A DNA stretch of 18,757 nt from a virus (lineage: Duplodnaviria; Heunggongvirae; Uroviricota; Caudoviricetes), in IMG/VR virus record IMGVR_UViG_2534681649_000009. One strand, written 5' to 3'. The position numbers are program-made. Of the stretch, positions 1 to 3,000 are shown one piece after another (the first letter of the stretch is position 1; every line of letters begins with the position of its first letter).

Positions 1-3000
1 ATGGCTCAAGTTATTAATGAAATGGATGTTCCGTCCCATTCGTTTGTTTTTCATGGTACAGGTGAGAGATATTTTCTTATTTGTGTGGTGAATGTGTTGT
101 TAACGATTATAACGCTAGGTATCTATTTACCATGGGCATTAATGAAATGTAAGCGTTATCTCTATGCTAATATGGAAGTTAACGGACAACGATTTTCGGT
201 AATGCTGCCAACTTACTGATTTAGTGTATGATGGTGATTTTAAGGTGCTTGCGTGGCTTCCATTTCCATCAGATGTCCTTCCTGCTCCGCTACTGAAGGC
301 GTGGTGCGTAACGGCAAAAGCACTGCCGGACATCAGCGCTATCTCTGCTCTCATTGCCGTAAAACATGGCAACTACAGTTCACTTACACCGCCTCTCAGC
401 CCGGTACGCACCAGAAAATCATTGATATGGCCATGAATGGCGTCGGATGTCGCGCCAGTGCACGCATTATGGGCGTTGGCCTCAACACGGTTTTACGTCA
501 CTTAAAAAACTCAGGCCGCAGTCGGTAACCTCGCGCATACAACCGGGCAGTGATGTGATTGTCTGCGCTGAAATGGACGAACAGTGGGGCTACGTCGGTG
601 CTAAATCACGTCAGCGCTGGCTGTTTTACGCGTATGACAGGATACGGAGGACGGTTGTGGCGCACGTCTTCGGTGAACGCACTCTGGCCACACTGGAGCG
701 TCTTCTGAGCCTGCTGTCGGCCTTTGAGGTCGTGGTATGGATGACGGATGGCTGGCCGCTGTATGAATCACGCCTGAAGGGAAAGCTGCACGTTATCAGC
801 AAGCGTTACACTCAGCGCATTGAGCGACATAATCTGAATCTGAGACAACATCTGGCAAGGCTGGGACGGAAGTCACTGTCGTTCTCAAAATCGGTGGAGC
901 TGCATGACAAGGTCATCGGGCATTATCTGAACATAAAACACTATCAGTAAGTTGGAGTCATTACCTAAATTCCTGGCGGAAGTGCGTCAGCACACCTGGT
1001 CATCCGGTACCAACGGTGTGGTGGCTGCAACGTTCTCACTGCGTCTGAAAGGCAAACCGGTGTCCTTTGTGGTACCGCTGGCGTTTGTGAAAAATCTGGA
1101 TAAGACACTTACCGTGAATACCGGTGCGCTGCTGACAATGTCAGTCAGTGCCAACGGGGGAATGCCGCCGTATAAATACGCCTGGAAGAAGGATGGTCAG
1201 CCGGTTGACGGGCAGACGACAGACACCTTCAGTAAGCCAGGTGCGCAGTCCGCTGATGCGGGGAAATATACCTGCGTGGTGACCGATTCGGCAGAGAAAG
1301 CACAGAGTGTGACGTCTGTTGAATGCACCGTGACAGTGAGCGCAGCTGCCGGATAAGGGGATGGGTCATCATGAAAAAGGATCTGAAAACGCTGGCGCTG
1401 GCCAGACTGTCAGGGTTTCGTCATAAAACGGTGAAGGTGCCGGAATGGGGGAATGTCAGCGTGGTGCTGCGGGAGCCTTCGGCAGAGGCCTGGTATCTGT
1501 GGCAGGAAGTGCTCAATGGTGATGGAGAGGATGACGATACCCTGTCGGTGGTGGCGAAAACCCGCCGTAACTTGGAAGCGGATGTGACGCTGTTCTGCGA
1601 TGTCCTGTGTGATACGGACCTGCAGCGGGTGTTCACTCCGGACGACCGTGAGCAGGTGCTGGCCGTCTATGGTCCGGTACATGCCCGGTTGCTGCGTCAG
1701 GCACTGGAACTGATCGCTGATGCAGAGTCGGCCAGAAAAAAGTAGCCCGCCCGGAAATTCGCTTTCTGATGCGACTTGCGCTCCGTCTGGGGCGCACCTT
1801 ATCCGAACTGCGCCACAGCCTGAGTGCGAGCGAGGCGATGATGTGGATGGAGTTCGACAGGATATCCCCGCTGGGTGATGAGCGCGGGGATATCCGTAAT
1901 GCACAGATCGTGAAAGCGGTTTTCGGGGCACAGGGGATGAATGTTGCACTGAAGGACGTCATGCTCTGCTGGGGCGAGGATGAGGATAAGCCGGAGGTGG
2001 ATCCGTTTGCGGCGCTGGAAGACGCGCTGAGCTTTGCAGCACAGTCATGAATGATGAGAACCGCTGAGGCGGTTTTTTTACGCCCGGAGAAAGGTGAATG
2101 GCGACGTTACGTGAACTGATTATCAAAATTGTAAGCTTCCGGGGAACTCATATTGACGCGTTTTTCAGGCGCGCGTCATCGGCGGCGCATACGAACGCTC
2201 GTGGTTTGATAACGGTTGATTTATTTTGTTGCACAGAGGCGATCGCCAGGCAGGTACCGGAGGCGGGCTCTGAAGTACTGAGTAGCGTGATCGCGTCAGG
2301 CCGCGAAGTACTGACTCGGGGATTAATTGCAGGTGATGATGTACTGACCCGGGAATGACTCCGGGCTGATTCAGGTTCTTATTCGCTGTCAGCCCGCGTG
2401 GTTGCTGGTCTGGCTCATTTCCTGCCGTCAGGAGTTCAACTCCCGACTGCAGGTTATGGCCCGGTGCACGAACACCTGACGGCAGGTATCACTCACCCGG
2501 AGAAGGTAAATCCCTCAAGAGGCAGCAACTCTGCCAGTCGCTCCTCCGGCCACTCCGGCAGACGCATCAGGACGTCTGTCAACCAGGCATGCGGCTCCAG
2601 ACCGTTGCGTTTCGCGGTTTCCAGCAAGCTCATTATTTGCGCGGCGCGTTCTCCCGCCATCTGCGAACCGGCGAACAGCCACGATTTTCTGCCCAGAACC
2701 ACGTTTTTGATGGCCCGTTCACACACATTATTATCCAGCGGCACCGCACCATCTTCCAGGAAGCGGCTCAGTTCCACGCGATGAGACAGCGCATAGGCAA
2801 TAGCTTTGTGTAATGCCTTTCCCGGAGAACATTGCGGTTCCTGCTCTTCAAGCCATGACCACAGTTCTTCCAGTATCGGACGGGCATAACGCTGTCGCCA
2901 CTGGCGGATTTTTTCCACGGGGCGGCTACTGATCTTCTTCTCAAGACGGTACAACCCCGCGATTTTCTTCACGGCTATGGCAGCCCGTGGATCTTTACTG

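Follow-up and report, generated by a model that had tools for sequence, protein, structure and literature searches.

Introduction

Recombination between copies of an insertion sequence (IS) gives inversions when the copies are inverted and deletions when they are direct. IS1 is also known to produce deletions and inversions next to itself, after which the flanks of the element show no matching duplication. IS-mediated chromosomal inversions in Shigella were reportedly described by Yang et al. in 2005. Inversions are exceptionally numerous in this group: 103 of 114 reconstructed events were placed on Shigella branches, and some IS sites were reused as hotspots (Seferbekova et al. 2021, PMC8072062). 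The prophages closest to the one studied here are the lambdoid elements of the yecD/yecE region in E. coli O104:H4 and O157, which combine an HK97-like head with a lambda-like tail.

Here we analysed the 18,757 nucleotides of IMG/VR record IMGVR_UViG_2534681649_000009 (hereafter the window), in which an IS1 joins the beginning of the chromosomal gene yjgN (the fragment yjgN') to the end of the phage gene V (the fragment V'). The locus is most likely the tail half of a defective prophage that was joined to yjgN' by a strain-specific exchange between two IS1 copies, probably an inversion.

Results

A complete IS1 with unrelated flanks

The element at positions 198-965 (plus strand) is a complete IS1 of 768 bp, identified by its inverted repeats, its open reading frames (ORFs) and its Pfam domains. 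It is bounded by imperfect terminal inverted repeats of about 23 bp (198-220 and 943-965) and encodes insA (253-528) and the insB' frame (447-950), which are joined by an A6C motif for -1 frameshifting (AAAAAAC, 504-510). The ORFs of the element matched PF03811, PF12759 and PF03400 with E values from 1e-20 to 1e-74, the domains including Zn_ribbon_InsA and HTH_Tnp_IS1 for insA and DDE_Tnp_IS1 for insB'. Size, inverted repeats, reading frames, frameshift and domains are thus all those of IS1, and the flanking duplication is the single expected feature that is missing. The first-pass annotation had given the element as 189-973, which describes the IS1 together with 9 nt on either side and not the element proper.

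That annotation had also reported the absence of a target-site duplication, and re-inspection gave the same result. The 9-mer to the left of the element, ACGATTTTC (189-197), is unrelated to the one on its right, TAAATTCCT (966-974). A search for duplications of 8-10 bp at any offset within 30 nt on each side of the IS1 found none, the longest shared sequence being a displaced 6-mer.

The left flank is a fragment of a chromosomal gene

Positions 1-197 (plus strand) hold the 5' part of yjgN, which encodes an inner-membrane protein of the DUF898 family, as indicated by sequence identity and Pfam. The fragment covers codons 1-65 plus 2 nt, such that the cut falls in codon 66, where the earlier reading had placed it approximately. 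It matches PF05987 (DUF898; E=2e-20) and, at the nucleotide level, a single chromosomal locus annotated as yjgN with 99-100% identity in 4,623 of the 5,426 complete E. coli genomes. The frame of yjgN' continues into the IS1 and ends at a stop codon at 217-219, which creates a fusion ORF of 72 amino acids. In relatives, the neighbourhood of the gene reads rraB-yjgM-yjgN'-IS1-'yjgN-valS.

We considered whether the DUF898 ORF could be a phage gene that normally precedes V, and rejected this candidate: yjgN is a host locus, and in intact relatives the gene preceding V is the tail completion gene.

The site has been struck more than once. Different IS1 variants have entered codons 65-66 of yjgN on independent occasions, 1 bp from each other, both in Shigella and in unrelated E. 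coli. In complete E. coli genomes, the left-junction query matched nothing but independent insertions of IS1 into yjgN.

The right flank is the tail half of a lambdoid prophage

The sequence that starts at position 966 aligns to the intact major tail subunit gene of a prophage of EDL933 (717 nt, 238 amino acids). The V fragment spans 966-1356 (plus strand) and corresponds to nucleotides 327-717 of the gene, i.e., residues 110-238, most of which belong to the C-terminal Ig-like domain. The junction does lie in the middle of V, as previously noted, but the retained part amounts to 54% of the protein and not to its C-terminal third. Gene callers start the V ORF at a TTG at 952, within the IS1, and so predict a protein of 134 amino acids.

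The genes that follow have the order of a lambda-like siphovirus tail (major tail, G/T chaperones, tape measure, M, L, K, I, J), as identified by Pfam and by E. coli homologues. All are on the plus strand: a G-like tail assembly chaperone gene (1371-1745), the T frame of the tail assembly chaperone (1769-2050), the tape measure gene H (2098-8114), and a lambda-like series from M, L, K, I and J to a Lom-like gene and side tail fibre and assembly genes (8107-16929), in which J occupies 10719-14192 and the Lom-like gene 14260-14859. A dinI-like gene lies near the right end of the window and is followed by the 5' part of yecD (18422-18757, minus strand), a chromosomal gene for an isochorismatase-family hydrolase that runs off the window. 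The right end of the prophage is still at its native chromosomal site, beside yecD and aspS.

The tape measure gene is itself split by an IS66-family element of 2,766 bp (2131-4896, minus strand), which leaves a 5' stub of H at 2098-2130 and a 3' part at 4897-8114. The element has three ORFs (TnpA, TnpB and the DDE transposase TnpC), with matches to PF05717, PF03050 and their partner domains. It is flanked by a perfect target duplication of 8 bp, TCAAAATT (2123-2130 and 4897-4904), and is a simple insertion that provides an internal contrast to the IS1. Since this duplication is retained, the loss of duplications is not general in this assembly. The exact sequence of the protein encoded by the 3' part of H was found in no contigs other than short draft ones whose ends fall at IS copies.

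Each flank belongs to a different, older insertion

Both halves of the junction occur separately in relatives, each within an ordinary IS1 insertion that has kept its duplication. In loci L002, L003, L005 and L007, an IS1 flanked on either side by ACGATTTTC interrupts yjgN at the identical nucleotide, and the remainder of yjgN and valS lie downstream. In loci L012, L016, L018, L020, L033, L038 and L041, an IS1 flanked on either side by TAAATTCCT interrupts V, again at the identical nucleotide; these copies are preceded by the N-terminal half of V and by a complete head module with terminase, portal, capsid, connector and tail completion genes. In L012, the terminase, portal and capsid genes lie at positions 528-8847. 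We classified 24 of the 25 closed contigs that bear V', and 12 of the 24 belong to this simple V::IS1 class, a total that comprises the seven loci read directly and the places similar to them. The fusion products are also found more widely: the exact 72-residue yjgN'-IS1 sequence occurs in 667 index blocks of public assemblies and the exact 134-residue IS1-V' sequence in 114.

The two 9-mers beside the IS1 of the window therefore derive from the target duplications of two different, older insertions, one half from each: ACGATTTTC is the left copy from the ancestral yjgN::IS1, and TAAATTCCT the right copy from the ancestral V::IS1. The duplication is missing because the two 9-mers belong to two different insertion events. 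Since the window has its left junction from the yjgN insertion and its right junction from the V insertion, its IS1 is a recombinant of two IS1 copies. The first-pass annotation had offered such recombination as one of two options, and the occurrence in relatives of both parental insertions, each with its own duplication, now backs it.

The variants within the IS1 agree with a composite origin. The copy in the window matches the V copies of L012 and L018 at every position, and five sites (126, 256 and 759-761) set it apart from the yjgN copies that bear the duplication. The right end of all rearranged yjgN' copies is of the GAGTC type, and that of the unrearranged ones is GCAGC. As judged from few sites, this pattern fits an exchange in which another IS1 copy supplied the right part of the yjgN element. 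In CP026811.1, a single SNP (position 520 of the IS1) separates the two copies and places the crossover to the left of position 520, a placement that depends on very few SNPs.

Rearrangements of the same two IS1 copies in relatives

The V copy of IS1 is a recurrent breakpoint. Four closed contigs have pocR to the left of IS1-V', among them S. boydii Sb227 (CP000036) and CP026731.1, which are the nearest relatives of the window, with two and one mismatches respectively over 11 kb. Eight others have yedI at this place, including S. boydii CDC 3083-94 (CP001063); the strain assignments of CP000036 and CP001063, both closed genomes with IS1-V', are given in PMC2974192. The prophage DNA flanking IS1-V' in relatives is 99.5-99.99% identical to that of the window. 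IS1-V' thus pre-exists in relatives, and the right junction was inherited and is not new.

For the yedI arrangement, the complementary product was found. IMG/VR locus L043 has the head genes and the N-terminal half of V, then TAAATTCCT, IS1, AAACGGCAG and yedA-vsr-dcm, and the order yedI-AAACGGCAG-IS1-TAAATTCCT-V' is the reciprocal of this junction. The yedI event was therefore an inversion that split the prophage and retained its head half. A scan of IMG/VR for the junction of the N-terminal half of V returned L043 and a second locus, L044, that ends inside the IS1; the scan for the V' junction returned one further locus of the yedI type. Scans of IMG/VR for the reciprocal of the pocR junction and for the yjgN junctions gave no matches.

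The yjgN copy has likewise been rearranged with other partners. To the right of yjgN'-IS1 are found either the last codons of yjgN, which corresponds to a short IS1-associated deletion within the gene (L001, L004, L006 and L009), or an inverted neighbouring segment. Loci L008 and L010, which carry four IS1 copies within 20 kb, each retain the two junctions produced when yjgN::IS1 and an inverted IS1 nearby recombined in a local inversion.

The combination seen in the window appears to be specific to the strain or sublineage. In none of the 24 classified contigs is yjgN' to the left of V', and the complete junction of the window (2.4 kb) and the right junction are absent from all complete E. 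coli genomes. A single degenerate pattern covering the wild-type site, the left junction and the reciprocal junction, validated on the window and on the loci, had no matches among the GTDB species representatives.

Origin of the junction

The relative orientation of the two flanks is informative about the event. In K-12, yjgN and yecD are both on the plus strand, at 4.47 Mb and 1.95 Mb respectively, and in the window yjgN' is on the plus strand and yecD on the minus strand. A segment that is forward in K-12 is thus joined to one that is reverse, which is the outcome of an inversion and not of a simple deletion. The pocR and yedI junctions are likewise forward-to-reverse. In CP026811.1, a genome of the pocR group, which is the group closest to the window, yjgN'-IS1 lies at 2.64 Mb (plus strand) and IS1-V' at 1.24 Mb (minus strand). 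As these copies are inverted, a single inversion would yield exactly the junction of the window. The copies are also inverted in the K-12 frame, CP026823.1 and CP026762.1, and direct in CP026797.1, such that the orientation of the parental copies is lineage-dependent.

We propose, with a probability of about 0.8, that the hybrid IS1 arose by ectopic homologous recombination between yjgN::IS1 and V::IS1 on the same chromosome, most likely as a large inversion. Two older and independent insertions, one in yjgN at ACGATTTTC and one in V at TAAATTCCT, would have been present in one chromosome, and an exchange between these inverted copies would have inverted a large part of it. The already defective prophage would thereby have been split, its tail half staying beside yecD and becoming newly joined to yjgN', and the DNA to the left of the V copy would have been relocated next to the former partner of yjgN'. 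For the direct parent, we infer an intermediate that had either the N-terminal half of V or pocR to the left of IS1-V'. An inversion predicts that another IS1 in the same genome carries the complementary halves: on one side TAAATTCCT (with the N-terminal half of V and the head genes) or GCAGAAATC (with pocR), and on the other either ACGATTTTC followed by TTATGGAATTACTGG (ACGATTTTC-TTATGG, on the 'yjgN-valS side) or GGCTATTTT. That this genome underwent an inversion is the most likely reading of the sequence, well supported and short of a demonstration.

An alternative is that direct IS1 copies recombined and that the DNA between yjgN and V, with the head, packaging, lysis and early regions, was lost. 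Such an event would equally leave a hybrid IS1 whose two half-duplications do not match; the copies are direct in CP026797.1, and four relatives show the short deletion in yjgN described above. However, the loss would have to span the 1.4-3.4 Mb that separate yjgN from the prophage in the related closed genomes examined (2.5 Mb in K-12 order), essential genes included, the forward-to-reverse junction is not the one expected, and the other rearrangements of the same IS1 copy are inversions whose reciprocal products were kept. We thus regard a deletion as unlikely. The claim that everything upstream of V had been removed is not supported in this light: 12 related closed genomes keep the head module beside V::IS1, L043 keeps the head half, and the orientation predicts an inversion. 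A deletion would also require that yjgN and the prophage had once been neighbours, and they are adjacent in no genome examined. The description as a tail-only remnant is apt locally, where tail genes are the only ones at the locus; the head half may still exist elsewhere in the genome.

The junction could also have been made by assembly, if contigs were joined through the wrong 768-bp IS1 and the real genome has pocR-IS1-V' at one place and yjgN'-IS1 followed by other DNA at another. Shigella genomes contain many near-identical IS1 copies (four within 20 kb in L008 and L010), the junction is missing from the 24 classified closed contigs, and pocR precedes the IS1 in the nearest relatives, which differ from the window by one or two mismatches over 11 kb. 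Against these points, the sequence is continuous over 18.7 kb, across both the IS1 and the 2.8-kb IS66-family element, which suggests long-read or finished data, and strain-specific IS-mediated inversions are very frequent in Shigella (103 of 114 on its branches; PMC8072062). An artefact therefore seems improbable to us. Far less probable still is that transposase made the junction, with the yjgN copy of IS1 attacking V by intramolecular replicative transposition and creating the IS1-V junction de novo. IS1 does make adjacent deletions and inversions that lack a matching duplication, but at least 24 closed genomes share this IS1-V' junction to the nucleotide, with the element facing the same way, and in 12 of them the TAAATTCCT duplication is still perfect and the N-terminal half of V lies to the left of the IS1. 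We rejected a de novo origin of the IS1-V junction, given that relatives carry ordinary V::IS1 insertions. Homologous exchange between two resident IS1 copies, most likely in the form of an inversion, is the reading that we retain.

Discussion

An IS1 that lacks its target duplication marks the breakpoint of a rearrangement, which matters for annotation and for the quality control of assemblies. The 72-residue "DUF898" and 134-residue "Ig-domain" ORFs of this locus are gene fragments fused to IS1 and not real genes. Scoring such a locus as a prophage deletion first requires a look at the remaining genome.

Within one S. boydii-type clade, breakpoints at the V copy of IS1 involve at least three partners (yedI/yedA, pocR and yjgN). 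It is conceivable, though we hold it somewhat doubtful, that the IS1 sites in V and yjgN are true hot spots, reflecting either target preference or selection for chromosome configurations or for the loss of YjgN. If so, they would serve as lineage markers and offer a small natural experiment on the large inversions that Shigella tolerates.

Comparison with known systems

The exchange between IS1 copies that we describe is ordinary, already known IS biology of Shigella, and the locus is one further example of IS-driven chromosome reshuffling and prophage decay in this group. As in other IS-mediated inversions of Shigella, the breakpoint lies in an IS copy, the flanks come from distant loci, the IS sites are reused and the background is of the S. 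boydii type. Nothing differs in kind, although the yjgN'-IS1-V' combination itself was seen in none of the closed genomes examined.

The element itself compares closely with simple IS1 insertions that carry a 9-bp duplication: it has the same length of 768 bp, the repeats of about 23 bp and the insA/insB' frames with their A6C motif, and its parental copies have perfect duplications. It differs from them in that its two 9-mers come from two insertion events. An IS1-mediated adjacent deletion would similarly retain one original flank and show no matching duplication; here, in contrast, the seemingly new junction is already an ordinary insertion in relatives, and no new transposition is needed to account for it.

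The prophage part has the gene order of the lambdoid yecD/yecE prophages of E. coli O104:H4 and O157 (V-G-T-H-M-L-K-I-J-lom-stf), the same right flank (dinI-like gene, yecD and aspS) and 99.2-99.8% identity over V'-G-T. Unlike in those prophages, V is cut by an IS1, H is cut by an IS66-family element, and the head half is separated from the tail.

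IS1 insertions in yjgN

The chromosomal DUF898 gene yjgN also carries independent IS1 insertions in three unrelated E. coli strains, MLI023K1, PRO_A-1412-6M-A_ESBL and TOE17. Their insertion site lies 1 bp from the Shigella yjgN site and is equivalent to window 190-198, with target duplication CGATTTTCT versus ACGATTTTC at the Shigella site. The elements are IS1A-type variants that differ from those of Shigella (92-95% identical), and in TOE17 an extra deletion adjoins the IS1. With the yjgN-IS1 junction as query, at least 80% of the query was matched in 18 of 5,426 E. coli genomes, and the junction was read in only three. 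These data suggest that codon 65-66 of yjgN is a target hot spot for IS1.

The right end of the element also varies. In the four related loci where yjgN::IS1 retains its duplication (L002, L003, L005 and L007; IS1 at 10198-10965), this end reads ...GTTGGCAGCATTACC (IS1 positions 759-761) and matches the reverse complement of the left end exactly, which gives perfect terminal repeats. In the window IS1 and in all rearranged copies, the right end is the usual ...GTTGGAGTCATTACC. Positions 759-761 may be a handy marker of the copy that donated the right end.

Insertions and gene calls in the tail module

The tail module is doubly defective, with IS1 in the major tail gene V and an IS66-family element in the tape measure gene H. 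The latter (2,766 bp, minus strand, three ORFs) splits H within window 2123-4904, a span that includes its intact 8-bp target duplication TCAAAATT, and is common to all related Shigella loci examined. Two ORFs at the IS1 edges are annotation artefacts of IS insertion, and public gene calls list both as ordinary proteins: the 72-aa yjgN'-IS1 read-through (1-219; 'DUF898'; 667 index blocks) and the 134-aa IS1-V' ORF (952-1356; 'Ig domain'; 114 index blocks), whose TTG start codon lies within IS1.

The region for the side tail fibre (14918-16331) is divided between two ORFs that overlap, 14918-15778 and 15744-16331, and probably represents an stf gene with a frameshift. Around 15700-15912 it includes imperfect coding repeats of the collagen-like G-x-y type.

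Surroundings of pocR-IS1-V' in Sb227

In the closest relatives, the pocR-IS1-V' locus is surrounded by further IS-associated rearrangements. Left of it in S. boydii Sb227 (L013, 1-9260), an IS3-family element stands between cobU and pocR, and yebC is near ldtA and cobTSU, unlike in K-12, where over 100 kb separates yebC from ldtA/cobTSU.
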